This document shows positions 5,547 to 19,610 of a stretch of 64,000 nt of DNA, in pieces (position 1 is the first letter of the stretch; each line of letters starts with the position of its first letter). The position numbers and the translations under genes are program-made. This DNA comes from Thermoanaerobaculia bacterium (GTDB taxonomy: Bacteria; Acidobacteriota; Thermoanaerobaculia; Multivoradales; UBA5704). The notes beneath the pieces were generated by a model. It did not search any database. It was not told the DNA's origin and was given only the letters and a program-made list of their open reading frames with translations. The stretch spans positions 6,535-70,534 of the forward strand of contig DASVEF010000255.1 of the NCBI GenBank assembly GCA_036380715.1, written 5' to 3'.

Positions 5547-7721
5547 CTATCTCCCCGGCCGCTGCCGCCCCAGCGCCGCCTCGGCCTTGTCGCGCTCATG
5601 GCGGGAGTTGATCGACTTGGCGACGTCGAGGTAGGCGTCCCGGGCCGCGCCCGTGAGGGTGTGCTTCTCGGCGAGCTCGACGAGCACCGTGGCCCGCTCG
5701 TAGTCGGATTCAACCCCCCGGATCACGCGCAGCACCGCGACCAAGGCCTCCTGGGAGAGGTCCGTCCTCTGGATCAGCGGTGAGAGGGTCTGCCGGCGCT
5801 CGTAGCCGGAGGCGATCGTATTCACCGCCTCGACGTAGGCGCGCTGGATCGCGGCATCGCCGAGAGCGGTCTTCCCGGCGACCGCGGCGAGCACCTGGCG
5901 CAGCTCGTAGTCGGATTCGATCCCGCGGGTGGCCCGGAGCACCGCGGCGAGGTTTTGGGAGGAGAGCCGGCCCTTCTCGATCAGCGCGACCAGGGTGGTG
6001 CGCTGCTCGTAGTCGGAGTCGAGGGACGCCGCCGCCTCGGCGAACGCCAGGGTGAGAGGCTCGGTCATCGCCTGATGCTCGGCCACGGCCGTGAGCACCT
6101 GGCGCAGCTCGTAATCCGACTCGACCTCCCGGCCCGCCTGCCGGATGGCGCGCTCGACCGTGCCCGGCGGCAGGTCGCGGCGCTCCAAGAGCTCTCCGAA
6201 GTAGATCCGCTTCACGTAGTCGCTCGGGAGCTGCGAGATCTCGGCGAAGACCCCTTCTGGCCCCTGGCGCTTCAGGAAATAGGCGACCCGCTGGTCCGCG
6301 GCGTAGCCGGTGCCGCGCACGAATTCGAGGAGCATGGCCTGGAGCCACTTGCGCCCCTCGGCGTCGAAGGCCCGCTCCCTGCCGTTGACCTTCCATTTGT
6401 AAACGGGCCGGCCGTCGCTCCCCGGCTCGACGTCGAGCCGCCGCTCGACGCCGTTCTCCTCCTCGATCCGCATCTCGGCGCCGGGGGAGAGGCTGGCGAT
6501 GCCCGTCCAGTCCTCGGTGAGCGTGACCTTGCCCTCCGTCCGGATGCGGAGCTTGTGGTCGTCCTCCGAGATCTGGAAGGTCTGGGTGCCGTCGTCCGAG
6601 CCGACGTTGATGGATACGGACTGCTGCTTGGATTTTGACTTCGGAGCGGGCTTCGCGCCGGGCGGAGCCGCATCCACAACCGGGGTGAGGACCGCCAGGG
6701 GGACCACCAGGCAGGCGGCGGCGAGCCACGCGGGGAAGGCGAGGAGGCCCGGGACGCTCCGGCGGTTGCGCTCGGCGTCGAGCACCGCGAGGAGCCTCCC
6801 CGTCAGCTCCGACGGGCGGGCCATGGCGAGGCCGGCCGGCGCGACAGCCCGGACGGCGCGCAACGACCGCGCGATGTCCACCAGCTCTCCGGCGTAGTCG
6901 CTGGCCCGGGTCCCGGCCGTGATCACCCGGTCGTCGCACGCGTGCTCGCTCTCCAGCCGCAGCTTGCGGGCCGCGATCCAGGCCAGCGGATTGAGCCAGT
7001 GGAGGGCGCGGGCCACCTCGGCGGCGAGCTGCGTCAGGTAGTCCCCCCGGGCCACGTGGGCGAGCTCGTGGAGCAGGACCGTCCGGCGCCGCGGCTCCGG
7101 CCAGGCTTCGGCGCTGGCCGGCAGCAGCACCGCGGGCCGGCGCCAGCCCCAGGTCATGGGCATGGCCTTCTCGCCCCCGGCGAACAGCTCGACCGGCCGG
7201 CGGATACCCAGCTCCGCGCACACGCAGTCGAGGAGCCCGGTCCAGGCCTCGTCCGCGATCGGCCGCGCGTGCCGGCGCTGCCACCGCACGCGGGCCAGGG
7301 CGACGCCGAGGGAGCCGAGCATCGAGAGAGCGCCCGCGAGCCAGATTCCGAACGCCGCCTGCTTCCAGGAGATCGTCCATCCAGCCGTCTCCTCTACGGC
7401 GGGAGAGGGCAGGGCCGGCGAGGGTACGTTGAAAGAGGCCGTGGACACCGGGAGAGGAGATGGCTCCCGCGGCGCCGGCGCCGGCGAGGCGGCCGGCTGG
7501 GATCTCTCCACCAGCAGCGGCAGCGAGACTCTCCAGGCCGGGAGCACAGCCGCGAGCGCCGGCAGAGCGAGCAGCCCGGCGATCGCAAGCCGCCAGACCA
7601 GGTGCCGGGCGGCGGCGGAGGCTTGCCGCAGCATCAGGACGGCCGCTCCCGCGGCGAGGCAGAGAAGGAGCCCCTTGAGCGAGGCGTCGAGGAGCGCCGC
7701 GAGCCACAGGTCGAGCATCAC
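5547..7721 (-). CDS. M56-family BlaR1-like membrane metallopeptidase / signal transducer with an atypical repeat sensor domain
   Basis: HELAHVARGDY (HExxH of peptidase M56) follows the N-terminal TM helices. The start (GTG 7721 or ATG 7718) overlaps the stop of the upstream BlaI-type gene. The C-terminal region of about 330 aa is not a penicillin-binding domain and carries about 6 SDYE-containing repeats. Confidence 0.85.
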   Translation of the reverse strand: MMLDLWLAALLDASLKGLLLCLAAGAAVLMLRQASAAARHLVWRLAIAGLLALPALAAVLPAWRVSLPLLVERSQPAASPAPAPREPSPLPVSTASFNVPSPALPSPAVEETAGWTISWKQAAFGIWLAGALSMLGSLGVALARVRWQRRHARPIADEAWTGLLDCVCAELGIRRPVELFAGGEKAMPMTWGWRRPAVLLPASAEAWPEPRRRTVLLHELAHVARGDYLTQLAAEVARALHWLNPLAWIAARKLRLESEHACDDRVITAGTRASDYAGELVDIARSLRAVRAVAPAGLAMARPSELTGRLLAVLDAERNRRSVPGLLAFPAWLAAACLVVPLAVLTPVVDAAPPGAKPAPKSKSKQQSVSINVGSDDGTQTFQISEDDHKLRIRTEGKVTLTEDWTGIASLSPGAEMRIEEENGVERRLDVEPGSDGRPVYKWKVNGRERAFDAEGRKWLQAMLLEFVRGTGYAADQRVAYFLKRQGPEGVFAEISQLPSDYVKRIYFGELLERRDLPPGTVERAIRQAGREVESDYELRQVLTAVAEHQAMTEPLTLAFAEAAASLDSDYEQRTTLVALIEKGRLSSQNLAAVLRATRGIESDYELRQVLAAVAGKTALGDAAIQRAYVEAVNTIASGYERRQTLSPLIQRTDLSQEALVAVLRVIRGVESDYERATVLVELAEKHTLTGAARDAYLDVAKSINSRHERDKAEAALGRQRPGR

Positions 7722-8119
7722 CTTTCTCCTTTCTTGGCTTCCTGGATCAGGGCGGAGAGGCGGTCGAGCTCCTCGTCGGTCATCTCTCCGGCCGACCGGT
7801 CGAGGAGGGCCATGACCGCCTTTTCCGCCGAGCCGTCGAAGAACGTCCGCACCAGCCGGTCGAGCGCGGACTCGCGCGCCTCGTCGCGCGGCACGGTGGC
7901 GAGGTAGAGGTACCGCGGGCCGTCCTGCCGGTGCTGGAGAAGGCCTTTGGCCTCCAGCTTGCCGAGCATGGCCCGCACCGCCGAATAACCCGGAGGGTCC
8001 GGCAGCTCGGCGATCACGTCCGACACGGTGGCGCTCCCCAGCCGGTAGACCGCCTCCATGATCTGCCGCTCGCGGCGGCTCAGGTCGAGAGGGGATCGTT
8101 CGTGCTGCATACGTAGCAT
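7718..8119 (-). CDS. BlaI/MecI/CopY-family transcriptional repressor
   Basis: The N-terminus is a winged helix (RERQIMEAVYRLGSATVSDVIAELP..YSAVRAMLGKLEAKGLL), with a C-terminal dimerisation helix. It sits directly upstream of the M56 gene and overlaps it. The start could instead be the second ATG (8110). Confidence 0.85.
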   Translation of the reverse strand: MLRMQHERSPLDLSRRERQIMEAVYRLGSATVSDVIAELPDPPGYSAVRAMLGKLEAKGLLQHRQDGPRYLYLATVPRDEARESALDRLVRTFFDGSAEKAVMALLDRSAGEMTDEELDRLSALIQEAKKGER

Positions 8120-8138
8120 GATGCTACGAAAGTAGCAT
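8113..8138. promoter_or_regulatory. Putative BlaI operator (three GTAGCAT / ATGCTAC half-sites)
   Basis: GTAGCAT (8113-8119), ATGCTAC (8121-8127) and GTAGCAT (8132-8138). ATGCTAC-GAAA-GTAGCAT is a perfect 7-bp dyad immediately 5' of, and partly overlapping, the blaI-like start codon. Assigning it as the operator is inference. Confidence 0.45.
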
Positions 8139-8169
8139 CGACTCGAACGGGCGTCAAGCTAGCCGGTCG

Positions 8170-9240
8170 TTACTGCTCCTCCGGCGGTTCCATCTGCGCC
8201 ATGTCGCACTCGGTGCTGATGTGGGGGATGACCCGAGGCCCCAGTCTCGCTTGCGTGAAGGGGGGGAGGTCCTTCCAGGCATTCCCAAGCTTGTCCTCGA
8301 ATTTATCCAGGTCCTGTTCACACAACCCGGTGCTGCCACGGTCGAGACGGAACGTGTGCCGGCGCACAGGCCGTTTGACGATCTCCTTTCCCAACAGATT
8401 GTAAAACGACAGGAAATGGTGCTCGGGATGGGGATACTCCGGCTTCGGGACATAGGGACTCTGCCAGTTGCCCACGAGGAGCGTGATTCTTCCATTCTTC
8501 GGTGTAAGAACCGCACAGGCCTTGCGAGTGCTCCTCGGCAGATCCCAGGACTCGAGACTGATCTCGTTCGCTTCGATCTCGAACTCAACGCGGGCCGCAT
8601 CGGCGACGGCCTGATGGAAGTCGCTGGCCGGCGCGCCGGACGCCCAGAATTTGAACATCTCCAGTTGTGAGAACTCGTTATGGAGGAGGTGACAGGCGAT
8701 CACGTCACCTCCCTGGATGCGGAACCGAGCGCTGATCGGGCAAGCGTCCGCCTCGCGCAGACAGTTCTCTTTGACCTCTCCTGCGCCGGCCGTGAGGAGG
8801 CTCACGCTGGGAATCCACGACAGATCTCGGCTCGCCAGGTCCGTCTCAGGGAGCCTGACCGGCCTCCCCAGCAGCGTGGGGCGGCCGCTCCGTACGAGGT
8901 TCACTCCCGTGACTCCGCCCGCGAACTGCAGGTGCTCCTTGTAGAGCCACCAGCGCAGTGGGAAATCGTCCTTGCTTCCCATGAGAACCAGGGGGTGCGG
9001 CAAGGGAGGGCGGGCCTTTTCAGCCATCTCGATGATGTGCTGAGGCGCGCGCTCGCAGTCCCCCGTGCACTCCCCCTTGAGCAGCCATACGCGGGCGGCG
9101 TGCTCCGGCACGGTGTGCTGGTCGTGCGGGCCCTGGACAGCGGGCGGGTCTGCGAGCAACGCGAACATCTCAACCGGCGGCTGCTGGTCCGGGGCGAGGG
9201 CGATCAACCCCCAGAAGATCACTTCCACGGTGACACCCAT
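8170..9240 (-). CDS. Hypothetical protein (356 aa), no recognisable family; translationally coupled to the CHAT gene
   Basis: The ATG at 9240 is preceded by AGGAGA, which overlaps the TAA stop (9250-9252) of the upstream CHAT gene. The frame is open to the TAA at 8170. There is no signal peptide or TM helix. The stretch is visibly more A/T-rich than its neighbours. Confidence 0.7.
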   Translation of the reverse strand: MGVTVEVIFWGLIALAPDQQPPVEMFALLADPPAVQGPHDQHTVPEHAARVWLLKGECTGDCERAPQHIIEMAEKARPPLPHPLVLMGSKDDFPLRWWLYKEHLQFAGGVTGVNLVRSGRPTLLGRPVRLPETDLASRDLSWIPSVSLLTAGAGEVKENCLREADACPISARFRIQGGDVIACHLLHNEFSQLEMFKFWASGAPASDFHQAVADAARVEFEIEANEISLESWDLPRSTRKACAVLTPKNGRITLLVGNWQSPYVPKPEYPHPEHHFLSFYNLLGKEIVKRPVRRHTFRLDRGSTGLCEQDLDKFEDKLGNAWKDLPPFTQARLGPRVIPHISTECDMAQMEPPEEQ

Positions 9241-9249
9241 GGCTTCTCC

Positions 9250-12200
9250 TTACCGGAATGTCGGGGCGGCAGGAGCCGCGCCGTAGAGTTGGAGCATCGT
9301 GCAGCGGAGGACTTCGCGCGGCGCGTCAGCCCTTCCAGAGAGGCATTCGAGCTGCGCGTTGCGGAGAGCGGCGGCCGGTTCCTCGCCGGCGGCGATCCGC
9401 CGGTGCAGGGCTGCGGAGAGCCGGGCCGCGGCGGCGTCGTCCACCCGGCGCAGGCTGGCGACCACCCTGGGAACGCCGCGGGAAAGCAGAGGCCAGACGA
9501 GGCCCGCGACCCCTTCACCCTGCGGGTTGCTTCCGGCCGACTGGCAGGCCGACAGGACGACGAGCCGCGTCGCTCCCGCCGGACGGCCCAGGAGCTCCCG
9601 GGCATAGAGGACTCCGGAGTCTCCGCCGTCGGGAGCCAGGGCGAGCTGGGACAGGAGAGGGCTGCCGGCACTGAGGATGCCATGCCCCGCGAAGTGGACG
9701 ATCCCGTAGCGGCCGATCCCGTCCAGGAGCGCTCGCCGGGTCGCTTCACCGCCGCGGAGCACGCGGACCCGCGGGTAGGCCGCGGCCACCGCTCTGCTCT
9801 CCTCGCCGGCCGCGGAAAGCCTGGGCAGGCCCGGGAACAGAGACTGATCGAAGGCGGGATCGGCGACGACCAGGACCTCGGTATCCGCAAGCTCTGTTCC
9901 GGCGCTCCTCGCGGAGAGCCGGACGAGCGCGTTCAGACTCGGAGCGATGGCGAACGGCCACTGCTCGACGAGCAGACGGCCGCTCCTCGCATCGCGGAGA
10001 GCGCCGAACGGCACCTGGTCCAGCGGCTCCTCCGGCACGAAGACGATCCTCCGACCCGAAGCCAGGTCGCCGGCCACCGGCCGGATCACGGCGTCATAGA
10101 GCTGCTCCGCATCCTTGGCGCTCCCATGCCACAGCCTGCGGACCTGCTTTTCCAGGCGCGCTGCCGCGATCCTGGACTCTCGCAGGCGGATCGAGCCCTG
10201 ATCCACGACCCAGATCAGCAGCTTCTCCGGGAGGACCTGGTAGCAGACGACCACGAGGCCGGGGGGGAGTTGGCGCTGCAACTCGCGGACAGGGTCCGGG
10301 CGGACGGGAGTGGACAGCGCGGAGAGCTCGGTGCCGGCCGGCGCCGGGAGGGCCAGGCTCCAATCGAGCAGCGTACGGGCGCGCGAGCGCTCGAGGACAT
10401 TCAGAGCCTGTTCCGTTCGCCCTCTCTCCACCTGGAGAGCGACCATCTCGTCGTACACGGAGCCCCAGCGATTGAAGAACGCCAGCCGGTGCTCGGTGGC
10501 CGGAAGGCTGCCGCGTTCCTCTTCAATCCGCTCCATGGCATCCCAGAGATCGGCTTCCGCCTCGTCCGGCTTTCCCGCCGACGCGTAGGCGTGGGCCCGT
10601 TCCTGAAGGGCTCTGGAGGCGAGCAGATGCCGGCCGCTCCGCGAGTACAGTGTCAAGGCCTCGCTCAGAGAGTTGGCTGCGTCGCGAGGCCGGCCGGTCA
10701 CCAGCGCCCGGCCTTGGAGGAGGAGGAGATCGGCGATCACGCTCTCCCGCACGTTGACATCCTCGATCCGGGAGGCCTGCGCGCGAGCCGCCCGCAGCTC
10801 TTCGAGAGCCTTCGCTGTGGCGCCGGTGCGGACCAGGAGGACCGCACGGTTGAGCAGTGCGGTGGCGGTCTGCAGGGGCTCTCCCGCGAGGTCCAGGGCT
10901 TCCGTCTGGAGGACGAGCGCCGCGTCCAGGTACCCTGACTCCGCGGCTGCCATGGCCGTCTCGGTGAGAGCGATGCGAAGGCGGGCCGGCTCGTTCCGGG
11001 AGGCCAACTCGCGCAACGCCAGGTGGCGATGCCGCCAGGCCGGGCCGGTGTCTCCGATCTCCTGATAGGCGCTGGCGAGAAGAGTATGGACGGCGGCCAG
11101 GTGGCCGCGCTCCCCGGCCCCTTCAAACCGCACCAGGGCGAGCCGGTACAGGTCCAGGGCTTCGGCAGGCCGCCCCTGAGCCATCCGGGTAGTCCCGAGC
11201 ACCCAGAGGGTCCGCCCTACGAGCGCGTGGTACCTCGATCCGCTCCACCGCTCCAGCAGCTCCTGTGCCCGCCACTGGACCTCCGCGAAGTCGGAACGCT
11301 GATACGCGCAGCGCAAGAGGAGGAAACGCGCCCAGGCTGCCAGCGGGCAACGGACCTTCTCCAGGAGCCGCTGCGCCCGATCCAGGGGCGCTTCGGCTCT
11401 CGCGAAGCTCCGGGCTGTCACCCATCTGAGCCCCTCGGCGTACGCGTGCAATCCGGCGATGAGGTCCGCTCGCCGCTGCGGCTCCCCAGTCAGGGCCTGA
11501 TCGATAGCCGCGATCGAGTCAGCGAGCATCGCCTCTCCGGAGGTCTCCCGGAGGGCGCGGCCGATGGATCGGGCCGAGGCCAGCGTCGCCCGGGCCTGAT
11601 CCCTCCGGCCGCTCCGTTCCTGGTTCGCCCAGGCGATCAGAAGCTGTTCTTCCGCCAAGGTCCGGGCCTCCTGCCGGAACCGTCCCACGAGAGAGGCGAC
11701 CGCCCCTCCGTCCTCCTGCTGCGCCGCGCTCTCGAGCCGGCTCCGCGCCTCCGGCCATAGGTCCTTCTCGGCGCGGTTCGTCAGGGCTGCCAACGCCGTC
11801 CGGGCCTCCTTCGCCCAATCGGACTCAGAATCTCGTTCCAGGTATTCATCCCAGGCCCGCGACGCTTGGCCGGACAGGTGCAGCCGTTGACGTGCCAGGG
11901 CACGGTTGAACAGGGCTTCCGGGCTCGCCGGGCTTCGCGCCACCGCCCTCTCGGCGCAATCCAAGGCTGCGATCAGATCGAGCGGCTGGTCCTGCGCCGA
12001 CCCCCTTACCAGGAAGGCCGCCGCCAAGTCCGAGAGGACTCCGGGATCGCCGGGTTTCTCGGCCAGGGCCTGTTCCAGCGTGGCAATTGCGCGGTCTGGC
12101 TGGCCCGCAAGCAGAAGGAGAGCGGCCTGGCCTTGCCGGGCGCCGCGCACGTGCCCCCTCAACTCGGAGGCGATCCGCCTGGCGGGACGGCGCAGCATTT

Positions 12201-12333
12201 CGTGGACCTCCTGGGCGGTCGGGCGCGATCCAGGATCGAGAGGACCATGTGAAAAACCACACCAGAGGCGCGGCTCGATCCAGCGGCGGACGCTGACAGA
12301 GGCCGCCAGCGACAGGTGACCCGGCGTGCACAC
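9250..12333 (-). CDS. TPR-repeat / CHAT-domain (caspase-like) protease
   Basis: The C-terminal CHAT domain shows the dyad contexts GIVHFAGHG and RLVVLSACQSAG. About 650 aa of TPR-like repeats lie upstream. The annotated start is GTG 12333, but the frame stays open to 12522 and encodes a lipoprotein-type signal peptide without a canonical start (see findings). Confidence 0.85.
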   Translation of the reverse strand: MCTPGHLSLAASVSVRRWIEPRLWCGFSHGPLDPGSRPTAQEVHEMLRRPARRIASELRGHVRGARQGQAALLLLAGQPDRAIATLEQALAEKPGDPGVLSDLAAAFLVRGSAQDQPLDLIAALDCAERAVARSPASPEALFNRALARQRLHLSGQASRAWDEYLERDSESDWAKEARTALAALTNRAEKDLWPEARSRLESAAQQEDGGAVASLVGRFRQEARTLAEEQLLIAWANQERSGRRDQARATLASARSIGRALRETSGEAMLADSIAAIDQALTGEPQRRADLIAGLHAYAEGLRWVTARSFARAEAPLDRAQRLLEKVRCPLAAWARFLLLRCAYQRSDFAEVQWRAQELLERWSGSRYHALVGRTLWVLGTTRMAQGRPAEALDLYRLALVRFEGAGERGHLAAVHTLLASAYQEIGDTGPAWRHRHLALRELASRNEPARLRIALTETAMAAAESGYLDAALVLQTEALDLAGEPLQTATALLNRAVLLVRTGATAKALEELRAARAQASRIEDVNVRESVIADLLLLQGRALVTGRPRDAANSLSEALTLYSRSGRHLLASRALQERAHAYASAGKPDEAEADLWDAMERIEEERGSLPATEHRLAFFNRWGSVYDEMVALQVERGRTEQALNVLERSRARTLLDWSLALPAPAGTELSALSTPVRPDPVRELQRQLPPGLVVVCYQVLPEKLLIWVVDQGSIRLRESRIAAARLEKQVRRLWHGSAKDAEQLYDAVIRPVAGDLASGRRIVFVPEEPLDQVPFGALRDARSGRLLVEQWPFAIAPSLNALVRLSARSAGTELADTEVLVVADPAFDQSLFPGLPRLSAAGEESRAVAAAYPRVRVLRGGEATRRALLDGIGRYGIVHFAGHGILSAGSPLLSQLALAPDGGDSGVLYARELLGRPAGATRLVVLSACQSAGSNPQGEGVAGLVWPLLSRGVPRVVASLRRVDDAAAARLSAALHRRIAAGEEPAAALRNAQLECLSGRADAPREVLRCTMLQLYGAAPAAPTFR

Positions 12334-12615
12334 GTCGATGCGAGCCGAGCCTGGCGAGGGCGAATTCCGGCAGGCGATCAGGAGCAGACCGACGACGAAA
12401 GCCAGGAACAGGCCCAGACGACAGGCTGCTGCAGAAGATCGGATCAGCTCACCTCCGGCGATCTTTGGAAGGCTCGTCCGGATTCTGTCACAGGTACGGG
12501 CCCCCTCTCCCTGTGAACCAGTTCACAGCCGCCCAGTGGAGCGGCTAGCAGCGGCGCTCGCCGGAAGGGACTAGCCTTCTTCCATCGGACATACTTTTCC
12601 GGGAAGGAGACTGTC

Positions 12616-13551
12616 ATGTACGAGCATCGTCGAATCCAGCAGTACCTCCCGTTGCTCGCCCTTATCTTCGCGGTCACGCTCTCCGCGTGCAGCGAGAAGC
12701 ACCGTTCCCCGACCGAGCCCGACTTCGTCAGCGCGAGCACCTCCGGCGTGACCAGCGCCTCCGGCGCGGCGCGCGGCGGCAACGGAGGCGGCAATGGGAA
12801 TGGCAACGGCGGGGGACGCAACCCGAGAGGCAATCCGGGAAGCGGGCTCACCCTGGAGATCCACCCCGACACGTGGAACACCAACTGGGAGCACAGCCAG
12901 GGCACGGTTTCGGCGCTGATCCGCGGCCAGGGGCTCGCCGACGTCGAGCTCTCCTCCATCCAACTCGTCGGTACCGATGCGGCCGCCGGCTCGGTCCCGG
13001 CGCTGCGCACGCAGCGCGCCGGCAATCACATCCGGGTCTTTTTCCGCCAGAGCGACGCCATCGAGACCCTGGACACTCCGCAGCGCGGCGAGGTTCACGA
13101 GGTGAAGATCGAGCTCATCGTAGACGACGAGGAGACGACCCTCACCGATCGGGTCCGTATCGTCGGTCCGGCCGGCGGCGGTGGCGGTGGTGGTGACGAC
13201 GAAGAGGTGGACCTCTCGGTAGAGATCCAGCCGGATAGCTGGAACATGAACTGGGGCAACAGCGCCGGCACGGTGAGCGCGCTGATCCGCGGCACCGGTC
13301 TCGACGAGGTCGACCTGCGATCGATCGGGCTGGAGGGCACCGATGCGGGCGCCGCGCCGGTCCCGGCACTGCGGGCGCAGCGCGCCGGCAACCACATCCG
13401 GGCGTTCTTCGACAAGGGCGACGCCTTCGACACACTCGACACGCCGCGGCCGGGCGAGACGCACCGGATCATCATCCGCCTGTCGGCCGGGGAAGACGAC
13501 GAAGAGATCGAGCTGACCGACCGCATCCGCGTCGTCGGTCCTTCCCGCTGA
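12616..13551 (+). CDS. Lipoprotein with two tandem ~105-aa repeat domains
   Basis: GGAAGGAGA Shine-Dalgarno 5 nt before the ATG at 12616. The signal peptide has lipobox LSAC. A Gly/Asn-rich linker is followed by two homologous modules (LTLEIHPDTWNTNWEHSQGTVSALIRG.. and LSVEIQPDSWNMNWGNSAGTVSALIRG..). Confidence 0.8.
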   Translation: MYEHRRIQQYLPLLALIFAVTLSACSEKHRSPTEPDFVSASTSGVTSASGAARGGNGGGNGNGNGGGRNPRGNPGSGLTLEIHPDTWNTNWEHSQGTVSALIRGQGLADVELSSIQLVGTDAAAGSVPALRTQRAGNHIRVFFRQSDAIETLDTPQRGEVHEVKIELIVDDEETTLTDRVRIVGPAGGGGGGGDDEEVDLSVEIQPDSWNMNWGNSAGTVSALIRGTGLDEVDLRSIGLEGTDAGAAPVPALRAQRAGNHIRAFFDKGDAFDTLDTPRPGETHRIIIRLSAGEDDEEIELTDRIRVVGPSR

Positions 13552-13600: not shown

Positions 13601-14989
13601 CTAGGCCTTTCGCAACAACGCCGAGACCCGGCGGGTCGCCATGCTCTCCGGCGGCTCGCCCCAGCGGTTAATCGAAGTTTCGCGGTCGGCTCCCGCGGCG
13701 AGCAGGGCCTCGACCACGGCGAGGTAGTCATCGTCCGCGTTCCGGCAGTGGGAGGAGCCGTGGCCGGCCCAGCCGAGCGGTGAGCTGCCGAACTGGCGGT
13801 CGCGGACGTTCACCGGCGCTCCCAGCTCCAGGAGCAGGCGCACCATGGCCACGTTGCCGCGCCAAGCGGCGTGGTGCAGCGGCGTGCCCCCCCACGGTCC
13901 TTCCCAGTCCAGGCCGAAACCCAGCTCGGCCATGAGCCGGACGCTCGCCTCCCGCCCCTCCTCGACGGCCAGGAGGAGTGCCTGCCGGTCCTCCGGAGTC
14001 AGCTCGGCCGGCAGCCCCGGATGGCGCGCGAGCAGGGTCCGCGCCGCGGCCGCGTCGGCGCGCAGGCAGGCGCCGAGCAACTCGTCCACCGGGGTGGCCT
14101 TGCCGGGATCCGCGCCGCGCTGGCGCAGGAGGTCCGCGACCGCGGCGTTGTCCGCGCGGACGGCGAGCCCATAGGCCGTACGGCCGTCGGCGCGCGGCTT
14201 GTCGACCTCCGCTCCATGCGCGAGCAGGAGCTCCACGATGGCCGGTGCCCGGCCGAACGCGGCGACGCGGTGGAGCGGCGTCTCGTCCGTAGGACGGCTG
14301 GTCACATTGGGGTCCGCGCCGTGCTCCAGCAGCCAGCGCATCCCCTCCGTGGCCGTGGGGCAGTTGCGGTCGGCTTCCTTGTATCCGGCCAGGAAGTACA
14401 GCGGCGTGTTTCCCCAATGAGGGTGCGCGCCGCTGATCTCCGCTCCGTGCGCGAGCAGCAGCTCCAGGCACTCGCAGTGGTTCAGCTCGGCCGCGTGGTA
14501 GACCGACTCGCCGTCGTTCGGATCGGCGCCGCGTTCGAGCAGTAGCCGCACGACCGGCACGTTGCCGCTCACGCAGGCGAAGTACAGCGCGGGCAGCTTG
14601 CCCTCTCCCTCGGGACCCTTCCAGACCATGTGGCTGTTCGGATCGGCGCCGCGTTCGAGCAGCAGCTCGGCGCACCGCAGGATGCCCCGCGCCCGCTCCG
14701 GGCTGCCGGCGTGGAGAGGCGACGAGCTGGCGTAGAGCAGGGGAGCCCAGCCGTCCGGCTCGTGCCGGGCGATCGCGAGCTGCGGATCGGCGGCGAGCGC
14801 CTTTTCCACGAAATCCGCCTCTCCCGCGCAACAGGCGGCGAAGAGATGGGCGCGGGCGATGCCGGGGTGCCGTTCGAGCAGCCGCTCCGCACCGGCCGCA
14901 TCCCGGTCGCGGACCGCAGCCAGGAGCTGCTCGGCCTGGGGCTCCAGAGACTGCGAGTCGGGATTCGAGGGGAGCTTTTCGGTGTCCAC
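13601..14989 (-). CDS. Ankyrin-repeat protein
   Basis: Multiple ANK units are present (TPLHHAAWRGNVAMVRLLLELGAPVNVRD, TPLYFLAGYKEADRN.., ESVYHAAELNHCECLELLLAHGAEI). The start is GTG at 14989. Confidence 0.85.
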   Translation of the reverse strand: MDTEKLPSNPDSQSLEPQAEQLLAAVRDRDAAGAERLLERHPGIARAHLFAACCAGEADFVEKALAADPQLAIARHEPDGWAPLLYASSSPLHAGSPERARGILRCAELLLERGADPNSHMVWKGPEGEGKLPALYFACVSGNVPVVRLLLERGADPNDGESVYHAAELNHCECLELLLAHGAEISGAHPHWGNTPLYFLAGYKEADRNCPTATEGMRWLLEHGADPNVTSRPTDETPLHRVAAFGRAPAIVELLLAHGAEVDKPRADGRTAYGLAVRADNAAVADLLRQRGADPGKATPVDELLGACLRADAAAARTLLARHPGLPAELTPEDRQALLLAVEEGREASVRLMAELGFGLDWEGPWGGTPLHHAAWRGNVAMVRLLLELGAPVNVRDRQFGSSPLGWAGHGSSHCRNADDDYLAVVEALLAAGADRETSINRWGEPPESMATRRVSALLRKA

Positions 14990-15991: not shown

Positions 15992-17518
15992 ATGCAGAAG
16001 CACGTCTTCATCAGCTACTCCTCCAAGGATGCCGCCTCGGCGAAGGGGATCTGCGAATCCCTCGAGAGGCAAGGCATCGCCTGCTGGATCGCACCCCGGG
16101 ACGTTGCTCCAGGGCACGATTACGATGAGGAGATCATCGATGCGATCGATGCCACGAGCGCGCTGTTGCTGATCTTGTCCGAACACTCCAACGAATCTGT
16201 CCATGTGAAGCACGAGGTAGAGCGGGCGGTGAGGACCGGAAAACCTATTTTCCCTGTCCGCATCCAGGATGTGCAGCCGTCGAAAAAGCTGGCGCTCCAC
16301 ATCTCCACGCGGCACTGGCTCGACGCCTGGGAACCCCCTCTCGAGCCGAAACTGGTCCAGCTTGCCGCAGGCGTACGGCGGCTTGCCAAGATTCCGGAAG
16401 ATCCGCGTCAGGTCACGGCTGAGCAGTTGCCGCCAGCCTCCGCCGAAGCACCAGCGCCAATTCTACCGACGGCAGTCCCGGAATCGGCCGCTGTTCCTCC
16501 CACGACAGAGCCCATGGCAACGGAATCCAGGTCCGTAGAAGCCTCGACCTCTCCGCTTCCTCACGACCCCAGCGCTCGGGAGGCCGTGGAGCGGGCTCTC
16601 GGCGAGATCCAAATCAAAACCGGAGCCCATATGGGAGGCCTCTGGTTGAAGGATGAGAACTCCTCCGTCGTGTGGATGAAGCTGTACAGAGAGTGGCGGC
16701 AAAGAGCCGTATCGGAGTTGTGCAGTCTACTGACAGAGCCCGGACAGGACAGCGAGAGGCAACTCAAGGCCATCCTCCTTCTGAAGCAGGCGGTATTCAC
16801 GCCGGAAGGCAGGCGGTCGATCTTGTTGATCCTGGACTCTGTTCATGAATTTGTCAGCGAGGCCGACCAGCGTGGGAAAGCGGCCCTGGAGTTGATCAGC
16901 GCGGCTCCCGTCCCGCCCAAGGTAAAATGGGAGCGGGTCTTTCCCCTTCTCGAGACCGCGCCCAAAGGCGCACGGCAAATGATTCTCATGGCCTTGCCCA
17001 GTATGACTCCTCCTGAGGAGAAGGCGCGTACGGGAGAAGCCATCCTCGACCTCTTCACCTTTGCGCCAACAGCAGACGGCAGCTATGAGGTCTCCGCAAT
17101 CCGTGCTCTGGATTACCGTGCAGGCATACCAATGATCCGGGACCTGGTCACTTCTTCACCCTTGGGGAAGGCCGAGCTCTTGGCGGAGCTCCTGGCCAGA
17201 TGGCGAGACAAGGACTCGGTTTCCTCCATCCGCGAGGCCATCGAAAACTGGCGTTACACGGCTCCCGACCTCGGAAGGCTGATCGAAAGCCTGCAGGAGT
17301 TGGATGGCCCTGCTTGCGCGTCCTACCTCGCCAAGATCCTTCTGGACGGCACGCCAGCCCTGCAATGGAACATGCTGGAGTACCACCGCCTCAAGGATTA
17401 TCGCGATGACCCCTCCGTTCTCGAGGCCGTCAGAAAGGTGGAGGCTACAGCATCCGATCCTCGGATCAAGAAGCTCGCACAGGATTTCTTGAGCCAAGGA
17501 AAGAATCCAGGCGTCTGA
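15992..17518 (+). CDS. TIR-domain protein with a helical-repeat C-terminal region
   Basis: The N-terminus is a bacterial TIR pattern (MQKHVFISYSSKDAASAKGICESLERQGIACWIAPRD..LLLILSEHSNESVHVKHEVERAV). A Pro-rich linker follows, then about 330 aa of predicted helical, HEAT/ARM-like sequence. The stretch is A/T-richer than its flanks. Confidence 0.85.
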   Translation: MQKHVFISYSSKDAASAKGICESLERQGIACWIAPRDVAPGHDYDEEIIDAIDATSALLLILSEHSNESVHVKHEVERAVRTGKPIFPVRIQDVQPSKKLALHISTRHWLDAWEPPLEPKLVQLAAGVRRLAKIPEDPRQVTAEQLPPASAEAPAPILPTAVPESAAVPPTTEPMATESRSVEASTSPLPHDPSAREAVERALGEIQIKTGAHMGGLWLKDENSSVVWMKLYREWRQRAVSELCSLLTEPGQDSERQLKAILLLKQAVFTPEGRRSILLILDSVHEFVSEADQRGKAALELISAAPVPPKVKWERVFPLLETAPKGARQMILMALPSMTPPEEKARTGEAILDLFTFAPTADGSYEVSAIRALDYRAGIPMIRDLVTSSPLGKAELLAELLARWRDKDSVSSIREAIENWRYTAPDLGRLIESLQELDGPACASYLAKILLDGTPALQWNMLEYHRLKDYRDDPSVLEAVRKVEATASDPRIKKLAQDFLSQGKNPGV

Positions 17519-17696: not shown

Positions 17697-19610
17697 ATGG
17701 CGACGCGAAGAGATCTTCTCAAGCTCGGGCTCGTGGCGGGCGGCGCGGGCCTCCTGCATCCCGGCGGCGCCACGGCGCAGCACAGGGAGCTGATCAAGTT
17801 CCTCTGTCCGCCCGACGACCGGCCGCGGGAGCTCGACGACCAGCCGGCGAGCCCGCCGGCGCGGCCTTTCGTGGCCGAGCTGTTCGTGCCGCCGGTCATG
17901 CCGCCGGTGCCCAGCCTCGACCCGCCGCCCGACCCGCAGGCCCACCAACGCTATCAGGAGTTTCTGCCACAGAAGCTCTACGAGATCCACGAGACCGAAT
18001 TCATCTGGCAGTACCATCCGGACCCGCCGTACGCGTCCGGCAGCTACTCGTGGGGTTTTCAGGCGGGGAACCTGCCGCCGAGCACGCCCGGCCCCACCTA
18101 CCAGGCGCGCTACGGGGAGCCCGTCCTCGTGCGCCGGGTCAACAACCTGCCAACGGTGGGGCACGCCAACGTCTTCTGGGCGCTCCCTTCGACCACGAGC
18201 CACCTCCACAACGGCCACACGGCCTCGGAGAGCGACGGCAACCCCGTGGACTGGATCGACTCCGGCGAGTTCTGGGACCATCACTACGCCAATTTCCCCG
18301 CCGGGTTCAATCCCCTCGAGAAGCTCACCACGCTCTGGTATCACGATCACCGCCTCGACTTCACGGCGGCCAATGTGTACGCGGGCCTGGCCGGCTTCTA
18401 TCTCCTTTTCGACGAGGACGACACCGGCGACGAGACCACGGGCTGGCGGCTCCCCAGCTTCCCGCAGTACGACATCCCCCTGCTCTTCCAGGACATCAAG
18501 TTCAAGGAGGCCGACGGCGGCGCGCAGGTCGTCTTCGACGCCTGGAACACGGACGGCATGCTGGGCGACCGCATGACGGTCAACCGGCGGATCACGCCAT
18601 TCTTCCGCGTCGAGGCGCGCAAGTACCGCTTCCGTATGCTCAACGGCGGGCCCTCGCGTTTCTACGAGCTGTTCCTGCGCTCCGACCGCAAGGTGGACGG
18701 CACCGACACCCCGCCGTTCATCGCCATCACCGGCGACGGCAACTTCCTGCCGCAGCCGGTCGTCACCCAGAGCCTCTTCCTCGCCGTGGGGCAGCGGGCC
18801 GACGTCATCCTCGACTTCTCCCACTACAGGCCGGGCGACCATGTCTACCTCCACAACCTGCTCGCCCAGACGAACGGCGCCGGGCCTTCGGGAGCCCGGC
18901 TCGACTTCGCGGACCCGCAGAGCTTCCTCATGCGCTTCGACGTGGTGGAGGCCCGAGAGCCGGACCGCAGCCGGATCCCGGACTACTTCCGCCCTCTGCC
19001 GGCGGTTGATCTCAGCGAGGTCCGGAGATACCGGACCTGGACGTTCGACTACCAGGGCGGCCTGTGGACGATCAACAGCAGGGTCATGGATCCCAACCGC
19101 ATCGACGCCGGCATTGATCAGAACAGCGCCGAAATCTGGACGTTCCGCAACGGCGGCCGCAACTGGTCGCACCCGATCCACAGCCATTTCGTGGAGTTCC
19201 TGCTGCTTGAGGTCAACGGCAGGCCGTACAAGCCCACTCAGATTACGGACATCGAAAACCGCGAGCTGACGTTGGTCGAGTACTTCCAACTGTCGCCGGA
19301 GCGGCGCAAGCCCATCCAGTCGTTCTTCGGCGGCAAGCGCAGGGATATCGCCGTCCTGCTCCCGGAAGACGAGGTCAAGGTCTACATGCGGTGGCCGGAC
19401 TTCCTGGGCAAGTACGTCATGCACTGCCACAACGTGGTCCATGAGGACCACGCCATGATGATCCGTTGGGACATCGTCGAGCCGGGCAAAGGCTTCGATA
19501 CGCCGCGGGACGTTCCAGCGGGGCCGCCGCACGTCGAGGAGCGGCCCGCCAGCCCGACGATCCAGGACAGCGGCGAGGGATCGAACGATGGAGGAGGGCC
19601 GGAGTCATGA
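17697..19610 (+). CDS. Multicopper oxidase (CotA / bilirubin-oxidase-like), Tat-exported
   Basis: The Tat signal is MATRRDLLKLGLVAGGAG. All four copper-ligand motifs are present: HLHNGH, WYHDH, HPIHSH and HCHNVVHEDHAMM. GGAGGAGG precedes the ATG. Confidence 0.9.
   Translation: MATRRDLLKLGLVAGGAGLLHPGGATAQHRELIKFLCPPDDRPRELDDQPASPPARPFVAELFVPPVMPPVPSLDPPPDPQAHQRYQEFLPQKLYEIHETEFIWQYHPDPPYASGSYSWGFQAGNLPPSTPGPTYQARYGEPVLVRRVNNLPTVGHANVFWALPSTTSHLHNGHTASESDGNPVDWIDSGEFWDHHYANFPAGFNPLEKLTTLWYHDHRLDFTAANVYAGLAGFYLLFDEDDTGDETTGWRLPSFPQYDIPLLFQDIKFKEADGGAQVVFDAWNTDGMLGDRMTVNRRITPFFRVEARKYRFRMLNGGPSRFYELFLRSDRKVDGTDTPPFIAITGDGNFLPQPVVTQSLFLAVGQRADVILDFSHYRPGDHVYLHNLLAQTNGAGPSGARLDFADPQSFLMRFDVVEAREPDRSRIPDYFRPLPAVDLSEVRRYRTWTFDYQGGLWTINSRVMDPNRIDAGIDQNSAEIWTFRNGGRNWSHPIHSHFVEFLLLEVNGRPYKPTQITDIENRELTLVEYFQLSPERRKPIQSFFGGKRRDIAVLLPEDEVKVYMRWPDFLGKYVMHCHNVVHEDHAMMIRWDIVEPGKGFDTPRDVPAGPPHVEERPASPTIQDSGEGSNDGGGPES

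Follow-up and report, generated by a model that had tools for sequence, protein, structure and literature searches.

The closest solved relative of the protease described here is DdvA of Myxococcus xanthus. In its structure, determined by cryo-electron microscopy, a zinc-binding anti-sigma domain in the cytoplasm is joined through a single transmembrane helix and a flexible linker to scaffold, TPR, and CHAT domains in the periplasm (PMC11506125). The linker has been proposed as an autocleavage site, and autocleavage in trans was proposed, not demonstrated (PMC11506125); ddvA is followed by a gene of unknown function, MXAN_7287 (PMC6061681). In known systems, CHAT proteases are activated by a signal and then cleave a partner protein to a toxic effector (10.1101/2022.08.17.504292; PMC10028731). 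One of these is Craspase (Csx29/Csx30 of type III-E CRISPR-Cas), in which a TPR-CHAT protease is encoded together with a dedicated protein client and acts in the cytoplasm, triggered by Cas7-11 and target RNA. Here we analyze a gene pair in a 64,000-nt stretch of DNA (the window, i.e., the whole stretch analyzed) from contig DASVEF010000255.1 of a Thermoanaerobaculia bacterium (GCA_036380715.1). The pair comprises a gene for a TPR-CHAT caspase-like protease and a gene for a 356-amino-acid protein, the partner, and the two genes are conserved as a unit in soil Acidobacteriota. An earlier note on the same DNA had called it a two-gene module of an undescribed type, and this description holds: the pair is conserved and tightly coupled, and no account of it was found in Pfam, NCBIfam, PADLOC, PHROGs, or the literature searched.

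Conservation of the gene pair

The pairing of the partner with one subfamily of CHAT proteases is obligate and specific, a statement that we regard as close to certain. The partner gene adjoins a full-length homologue of the window's TPR-CHAT gene in 16 of 16 informative loci, the window included (the others are L001, L003/L004, L005/L006, L007, L008, L009/L010, L011/L012, L013, L014 [the same as L020], L015, L016, L017, L022, L028, and L056). A further locus, L002, is uninformative because its contig is cut inside the partner gene. Four loci from metagenome-assembled genomes (MAGs) of Acidobacteriota were recovered by scanning contigs with sub-alignments, and all named genomes that carry the pair are Acidobacteriota MAGs, Thermoanaerobaculia among them. 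The pairing holds down to a partner identity of about 25%. The CHAT proteins encoded beside the partner are homologous over their full length, with 33 to 43% identity over 900 to 1070 residues between lineages and 33 to 78% overall; in L001 the CHAT protein is 77% and the partner 75% identical to that of the window. Pairwise identities of CHAT proteins and of partners co-vary (Spearman 0.80 over 45 pairs). Gene order is usually CHAT and then partner, with the partner first in L005 and L056, and a second partner paralogue is present in L003, L005, and L013 (for L013, hhalign probability 99.6%). No further neighboring gene is conserved across the loci compared.

The pairing was also examined from the side of the protease. 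Scanning metagenome contigs with the CHAT alignment gave 34 loci, among which the partner was found only beside genes that score high against the subfamily profile, namely, those of L022 (570 bits) and L028 (a C-terminal fragment, 255 bits over 249 residues). About 30 other TPR-CHAT genes have no partner within 5 kb. The neighborhood statistic that the earlier note had suggested as a check came out in favor of adjacency to CHAT genes.

Both open reading frames (ORFs), which were taken from a six-frame list, lie on the minus strand where they had been placed in that note. The protease ORF (9250..12333, 1027 amino acids) matches several Pfam TPR families within residues 65 to 608 and the CHAT family (Pfam PF12770, clan CD, caspase-like) at residues 741 to 1004, with an E value of 4.1e-56 and 191 bits. 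The His/Cys dyad is intact, as had been claimed. The context of the catalytic His is GIVHFAGHG (residues 877 to 885; 9679..9705, minus strand), which contains His880 and His884, and the context of the catalytic Cys930 is RLVVLSACQSAG (residues 923 to 934; 9532..9567, minus strand). Both His residues and the Cys are invariant in an alignment of eight sequences (A5), and the motifs HFAGHG and LSAC are unchanged across these homologues. The partner ORF (8170..9240, 356 amino acids) encodes a member of an uncharacterized protein family.

The tight coupling of the two genes was likewise found as described. At the junction (9241..9252, minus strand), which reads TTC CGG TAA GGA GAA GCC ATG, the stop codon of the CHAT gene (TAA, 9250-9252) is separated from the start codon of the partner gene by 9 nt (TAA-GGAGAAGCC-ATG). 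AGGAGA begins with the final A of the TAA, and 5 nt separate the GGAG Shine-Dalgarno sequence from the ATG at 9240. At homologous loci there are gaps of 10 to 50 nt between the two genes, or overlaps, and in L007, L009, and L014 stop and start codons overlap by 1 to 4 nt. The TAA and the ATG are in frame in the window, and a CHAT-partner fusion formed by read-through of the TAA was considered; it is ruled out by the gap in orthologous L001, which is 10 nt. Scans for promoters, terminators, and Rfam families around the module gave nothing useful.

The protease and its relatives

With the CHAT family profile as the query, the top match in the PDB is DdvA (8rot_B/8rw5, 991 amino acids; E value, 2.7e-18). 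The match spans DdvA residues 118 to 311, which are the scaffold that follows the membrane, and residues 833 to 987, which are the CHAT domain. In contrast, Craspase CHAT chains and separase reach E values of only 0.005 to 0.02 in the same search (about 0.02 for Craspase and about 0.005, in the CHAT core, for separase). The window's protease resembles DdvA in its predicted layout of membrane segment, linker, TPR scaffold, and CHAT domain, in its His/Cys dyad, and in that the profile match takes in the scaffold after the membrane segment as well as the CHAT domain. It differs from DdvA in having no match to zf-HC2 in Pfam and at most about 15 residues before the hydrophobic segment, and no gene for a sigma factor of the extracytoplasmic function (ECF) type adjoins it in the window. 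The subfamily as a whole differs in that a lipobox takes the place of a plain transmembrane helix in many members, and also in its obligate partner gene, which DdvA-like L018 and L019 do not have: a partner homologue was sought at these two DdvA-like loci of other Myxococcota, and none was found. A sigma factor gene is near the module in 2 of the 16 loci. In L005, genes for an ECF sigma factor and a zf-HC2 anti-sigma factor (148-1931) adjoin it, an arrangement that recalls DdvS-DdvA, and in L014 a gene for an ECF-type sigma factor (1707-2525) is close to it.

The protease probably does not start at the GTG at 12333, because the frame is open upstream of this codon and encodes a signal-like segment after a GGAGG; the product probably begins near 12447. 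The probable 5' extension of the gene (12370..12456, minus strand) has equivalents in homologues. It carries the GGAGG (12452-12456) and two candidate noncanonical start codons, a CTG (12445-12447) and an ATC (12442-12444), and it encodes ...CRLGLFLAFVVGLLLIAC, also written as ...IRSSAAACRLGLFLAFVVGLLLIAC-RNSPSPG.... The extension ends in the lipobox L-I-A-C, with the Cys codon at 12370-12372. At the equivalent N-terminal position, the CHAT protein of L001 has MRRRAPWVWLPIGLLLATC. The ratio of nonsynonymous to synonymous substitution (dN/dS) of the extension relative to L001 is 0.84, a value that is uninformative. A hydrophobic stretch is present at the N terminus of 10 of 11 CHAT homologues, and it often terminates in a lipobox (L-I-A-C, L-S-A-C, L-G-G-C, or the like). 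A twin-arginine translocation signal on the CHAT protein, by which the partner might be exported as a hitch-hiker, was considered and ruled out, since most of the N termini have a single Arg.

Because of this N-terminal hydrophobic or lipobox segment, and because the best solved relative is the periplasmic part of DdvA, the protease most likely resides in the envelope, anchored by a lipid or a helix. The cytoplasmic, signal-activated executioner of the Csx29/Csx30 kind that the earlier note had implied is not what these features point to. Past the putative anchor, the window's protease contains the motif W-I-E-P-R-L (12265..12282, minus strand), which conforms to a conserved family motif, R-x-x-E-P-R-L-S/T. 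This motif is present in most CHAT homologues, where it stands 20 to 35 residues past the membrane anchor, and its Arg, Glu, and Arg are invariant in A5. By comparison with DdvA, we infer that it sits where the proposed autocleavage linker of that protein is.

The partner family

Judged by sequence, the partner family is real, and it is unlike anything in the libraries that were searched. The 356-amino-acid partner has no match in Pfam, NCBIfam, PADLOC, PHROGs, or PDB sequences, which bears out the earlier statement that it belongs to no recognizable family. A scan of 45 family members against Pfam gave 0 matches, the best hit of the partner profile among PDB sequences has an E value of 0.08 and is not significant, and looking up the partner cluster returned the annotation "hypothetical protein" alone. 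The partner also has no match among known plasmids and phages. A word-indexed search found one 75%-identical orthologue and one fragment, and a profile repeat added two more sequences. The family was defined by an exhaustive HMMER profile search over 1.8 billion representatives, which gave 199 cluster representatives at an E value of ≤1e-3 and 88 at ≤1e-10. Full-length members have about 300 to 430 amino acids, and a few shorter fragments were matched as well. The dN/dS of the window's partner relative to its L001 orthologue is 0.26, which indicates purifying selection.

An AlphaFold2 model of the partner built from a 136-sequence alignment has a mean predicted local distance difference test score (pLDDT) of 93.4 and a predicted template-modeling score (pTM) of 0.93; the model from a 3-sequence alignment had reached a pLDDT of only 30. 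The predicted fold is mostly beta, with few helices and with eight long strands in series at residues 169 to 260. When this model was compared by Foldseek with the PDB and BFVD, no match was found at an E value of ≤1e-3, and template-modeling scores were about 0.1. The profile searches, the model, and the Foldseek comparison therefore give no confident match to a known fold, in the sense that the partner has no relative among solved (PDB) or viral (BFVD) structures.

As had been noted, the partner is rich in Cys, His, and Trp (8, 14, and 9 residues in the window's copy). Across the 136 partner sequences, His47, His275, and Cys345 are invariant, and they look like a His2Cys metal or active site; Gly11, Leu12, Pro131, and Trp142 are near-invariant. 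Three pairs of cysteines co-vary: C58/C62 (both present in 110 sequences and both absent from 14), C160/C167 (105 and 26), and C183/C307 (110 and 20). A subfamily with three cysteines has lost C160/C167 and C183/C307 along with H184, E308, and H340. The number of cysteines is odd in 109 of the 136 partners (mode, 9; range, 3 to 17; p = 7e-13). An odd count is what would be expected of paired cysteines plus one free cysteine, and the pattern suggests that the partner holds disulfides.

If the protease is outside the cytoplasm and the partner is disulfide-bonded, then the partner should be exported. However, the window's partner has no canonical signal peptide, in agreement with the earlier note. 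Nearly all members (131 of the 136) start 0 to 9 residues, mostly 2 to 6, ahead of a strand with the consensus M-x-F-T-L-R-I-I-F-x-G-L-I-A-F-V-P. AlphaFold2 places this N-terminal strand in a beta hairpin with a pLDDT of about 95; the Gly-Leu within the strand is almost invariant. A signal or lipobox extension of 30 to 45 residues is found only in P0031, P0059, P0093, P0103, and perhaps P0108; for P0059 (L011) and P0031, a CHAT gene of the subfamily again adjoins. A type IV pilin-like N terminus was considered for the partner and ruled out, since the family consensus lacks both the Gly at -1 and the Glu at +5.

The partner gene had been described as compositionally distinct, and this is true in part. 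Its G+C content in the window is lower than that of the CHAT gene (0.635 versus 0.707), but the G+C contents at third codon positions (GC3) are nearly equal (0.80 versus 0.82), which indicates that the difference stems from amino acid composition and not from foreign codon usage. A foreign origin of the window's partner gene is thus ruled out by the match in GC3. Over the pairs compared, the partner has a lower G+C content than the adjacent CHAT gene in 9 of 10, and in five pairs, the window not among them, there is a large drop in GC3, of 0.12 to 0.32, from CHAT to partner: 0.52 versus 0.79 for partner and CHAT in L003, 0.58 versus 0.90 for the second copy in L005, 0.61 versus 0.78 in L011, 0.59 versus 0.71 in L015, and 0.49 versus 0.70 in L016. 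In the syntenic loci L011 and L015, the CHAT proteins are 74% identical and the partners just 31%. The partner is thus the more variable of the two components, and these data suggest that its gene has been turned over or exchanged faster in some lineages.

Surroundings, function, and alternatives

Just downstream of the partner gene in the window are a gene for a BlaI-like penicillinase repressor (7718-8119) and, after it, a BlaR1/M56 gene (5547-7721). Two overlapping palindromes at 8103-8139 (TGCTGCATACGTAGCAT / ATGCTACGAAAGTAGCA and GATGCTAC-N4-GTAGCATC) span the start codon of the BlaI-like gene. They are probably the repressor's own operator, and they indicate that a distinct transcription unit lies immediately past the partner gene. 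Divergent from the CHAT gene is a gene for a Gly-rich predicted lipoprotein (12616-13551), which contains two copies of a segment of ~120 amino acids, IQPD[TS]WN.NW..S.GTVSALIRG.GL..., and which among the other loci is beside the module only in L001. It is followed by an ankyrin-repeat gene (13601-14989, 462 amino acids) and then by a cyclase gene. The ankyrin-repeat gene is missing from the otherwise syntenic L001, where the cyclase gene comes directly after the lipoprotein gene. A TIR-domain protein of 508 amino acids is encoded at 15992-17518, and a multicopper oxidase ORF (17697-19610) begins with a twin-arginine-type signal, MATRRDLLKLGLVAGGAG. Genes that lie farther off in the window encode a SpoIIE phosphatase, a phosphodiesterase, an amidohydrolase, and an isoamylase.

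The earlier note had hinted at a link between the module and the TIR gene and had proposed looking for enrichment in defense islands. The TIR gene is on the strand opposite to the module, 3.7 kb off with three genes between, and none was seen among the Pfam-annotated or scanned neighbors of the other loci, for which annotation is incomplete; a link is not supported. Among the genes around the module that were compared, the TIR gene is lowest in both G+C content and GC3 (0.60 and 0.72), and it is a better candidate for recent acquisition than the partner gene. The surroundings of the other loci are mostly housekeeping genes, such as those for EF-G, a glycosyltransferase, a carbamoyltransferase, or an ABC transporter, or else toxin-antitoxin genes. 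No CRISPR repeat family was found at threshold in the 64-kb window, no RNA family other than one tRNA was found there, and none of the ORFs scanned is cas-like. A role in a defense island is not indicated.

Our preferred reading, which we hold with about as much doubt as confidence, is that the partner is the dedicated client of an envelope protease, which either cleaves it or is gated by it. The first gene would encode a TPR-CHAT cysteine protease of the separase/DdvA type. An N-terminal signal or lipobox segment would place its TPR solenoid and caspase-like domain outside the cytoplasmic membrane, tethered through the linker with R-x-x-E-P-R-L-S. The second gene, translated in step with the first, would encode a beta-rich protein of ~350 amino acids, probably stabilized by disulfides, in which an invariant free Cys and two invariant His residues may form a metal or active site. 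The partner would dock on the TPR scaffold and would then either be cut by the His884/Cys930 dyad or restrain that dyad until a signal arrives. Export of both proteins, their physical binding, and cleavage or gating are what we infer from the conserved pairing, the intact dyad, the homology to DdvA, the signal-like N termini, and the cysteine pattern. For a gatekeeper, separase-securin offers an analogy, in which a helical-repeat scaffold with a caspase-like domain is under the control of a partner bound tightly in its active site. That system is eukaryotic, however, securin is small and disordered whereas the partner is predicted to be folded and beta-rich, and the profile similarity to separase is weak.

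Several observations weigh against this reading. There is no ATG, GTG, or TTG ahead of the signal-like segment of the window's protease (12334-12456), only the CTG and the ATC. Either translation begins at a rare start codon or the export signal has been lost from this genome's copy, and the protein encoded here could begin at the GTG at 12333 and remain cytoplasmic. A canonical signal peptide is lacking from 131 of 136 partners, the window's included, so that export of the partner is unexplained, and at a position occupied by Arg or Lys in 103 of the 136 members, the partner of the window has Glu. Finally, the co-varying Cys pairs could be metal ligands instead of disulfides. A single low-Cys subfamily contributes part of the co-variation, which is also inflated by phylogenetic non-independence.

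The signal-less partners are the main evidence for an alternative in which the protease is exported and the partner serves as a safeguard before export, remaining in the cytoplasm and binding any protease that folds prematurely, as an inhibitor or a holding chaperone. Such an arrangement has a precedent in the staphopains, exported papain-like cysteine proteases that are followed in the same operon by a staphostatin, a signal-less beta-barrel inhibitor of ~110 amino acids. The two cases are alike in gene order and in that only the protease carries a signal, and tight coupling, usually in the order protease and then partner, suits this explanation too. The staphopain pair nevertheless differs in its papain-like fold and in the size of its inhibitor, and it has no known homology to the window pair. 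We consider a safeguard of this type unlikely, since the odd-numbered, paired cysteine pattern points to disulfides, some partners (e.g., P0059 in L011) have a real signal or lipobox extension, invariant His/His/Cys residues and a size of 350 amino acids are unusual in a simple inhibitor, and three loci have two partner copies per protease. A mechanism closer to that of DdvA would make the partner a periplasmic co-sensor. A ligand (a metal, an oxidant, or a foreign protein) would be bound or lost at its His2Cys site, upon which the CHAT domain would cut its own R-x-x-E-P-R-L-S linker and TPR-CHAT would be freed from the membrane as the output. The homology to DdvA, which takes in the linker and scaffold region, the conservation of the linker motif, and the sigma factor genes of L005, where they adjoin the module together with the anti-sigma gene, and of L014 are consistent with this. 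We find it doubtful, however, because the CHAT proteins have neither a zinc-binding anti-sigma domain nor any other cytoplasmic domain, a sigma factor is nearby in only 2 of 16 loci, and no partner homologue is present at the DdvA-like loci L018 and L019.

A cytoplasmic anti-phage or abortive-infection pair, in which a signal, perhaps through the TIR protein, activates the CHAT protease to cleave the partner to a toxic effector, would resemble Craspase, bacterial gasdermins, or type IV Thoeris. Known CHAT systems do this (10.1101/2022.08.17.504292; PMC10028731). The TIR gene at 15992-17518, the toxin-antitoxin or AbiEii genes near the module in L008, L011, and L056, and the fact that the partner is the faster-evolving gene with the lower GC3 in several loci could be read in the same way. 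We nonetheless judge this distinctly improbable. Neither protein has a PADLOC match, export is predicted for the CHAT protein, the TIR gene, three genes off and on the other strand, is not among the Pfam-annotated neighbors elsewhere, and the wider neighborhoods are mostly housekeeping genes (those named above, with isoamylase). The similarity of the CHAT family to Craspase is marginal, and neither a CRISPR array nor a cas gene was noted in the window. Operons of a bacterial gasdermin and a caspase-like protease share the two-gene layout of protease and effector, but the partner has no match to bGSDM in PADLOC and none by Foldseek to PDB chains, gasdermins included, and no phage or plasmid match was found. 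The TIR-plus-protease arrangement of type IV Thoeris-like systems differs in that the TIR gene of the window is neither in one operon with the module nor, among the Pfam-annotated neighbors of the other loci, co-conserved with it. That the two genes are mere neighbors with unrelated functions is extremely improbable, given adjacency in 16 of 16 loci across relatives of 25 to 77% identity, with changed gene order and otherwise unrelated neighbors, and given stop and start codons that overlap.

Returning to the envelope protease and its client, known settings of TPR-CHAT proteins are a cytoplasmic executioner, Craspase, and the periplasmic part of one anti-sigma factor, the trigger of which is unknown. 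The module would add a third, an envelope TPR-CHAT protein that is free-standing, probably lipid-anchored, and never without one particular partner. It points to a specific protein that CHAT proteases of the envelope may bind or cut, in a phylum about whose cell biology little is known. The partner family itself is well predicted (pLDDT, 93), has no structural relative in the PDB, and has an invariant His-His-Cys site, and the contrast between its disulfide-like cysteine statistics and its missing signal peptide makes a small, well-defined puzzle in protein export. A bolder and tentative proposal, to which we give little weight, is that Acidobacteriota possess an unrecognized periplasmic caspase-like system, in which a lipoprotein TPR-CHAT protease is combined with a fast-evolving, swappable partner of new fold that reaches the envelope without a classical signal peptide; together the two would act as a device for envelope surveillance, self/non-self recognition, or programmed death. 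If true, this would be the envelope counterpart of the cytoplasmic protease-effector immune pairs of bacteria, and it would hint at an unknown export route.

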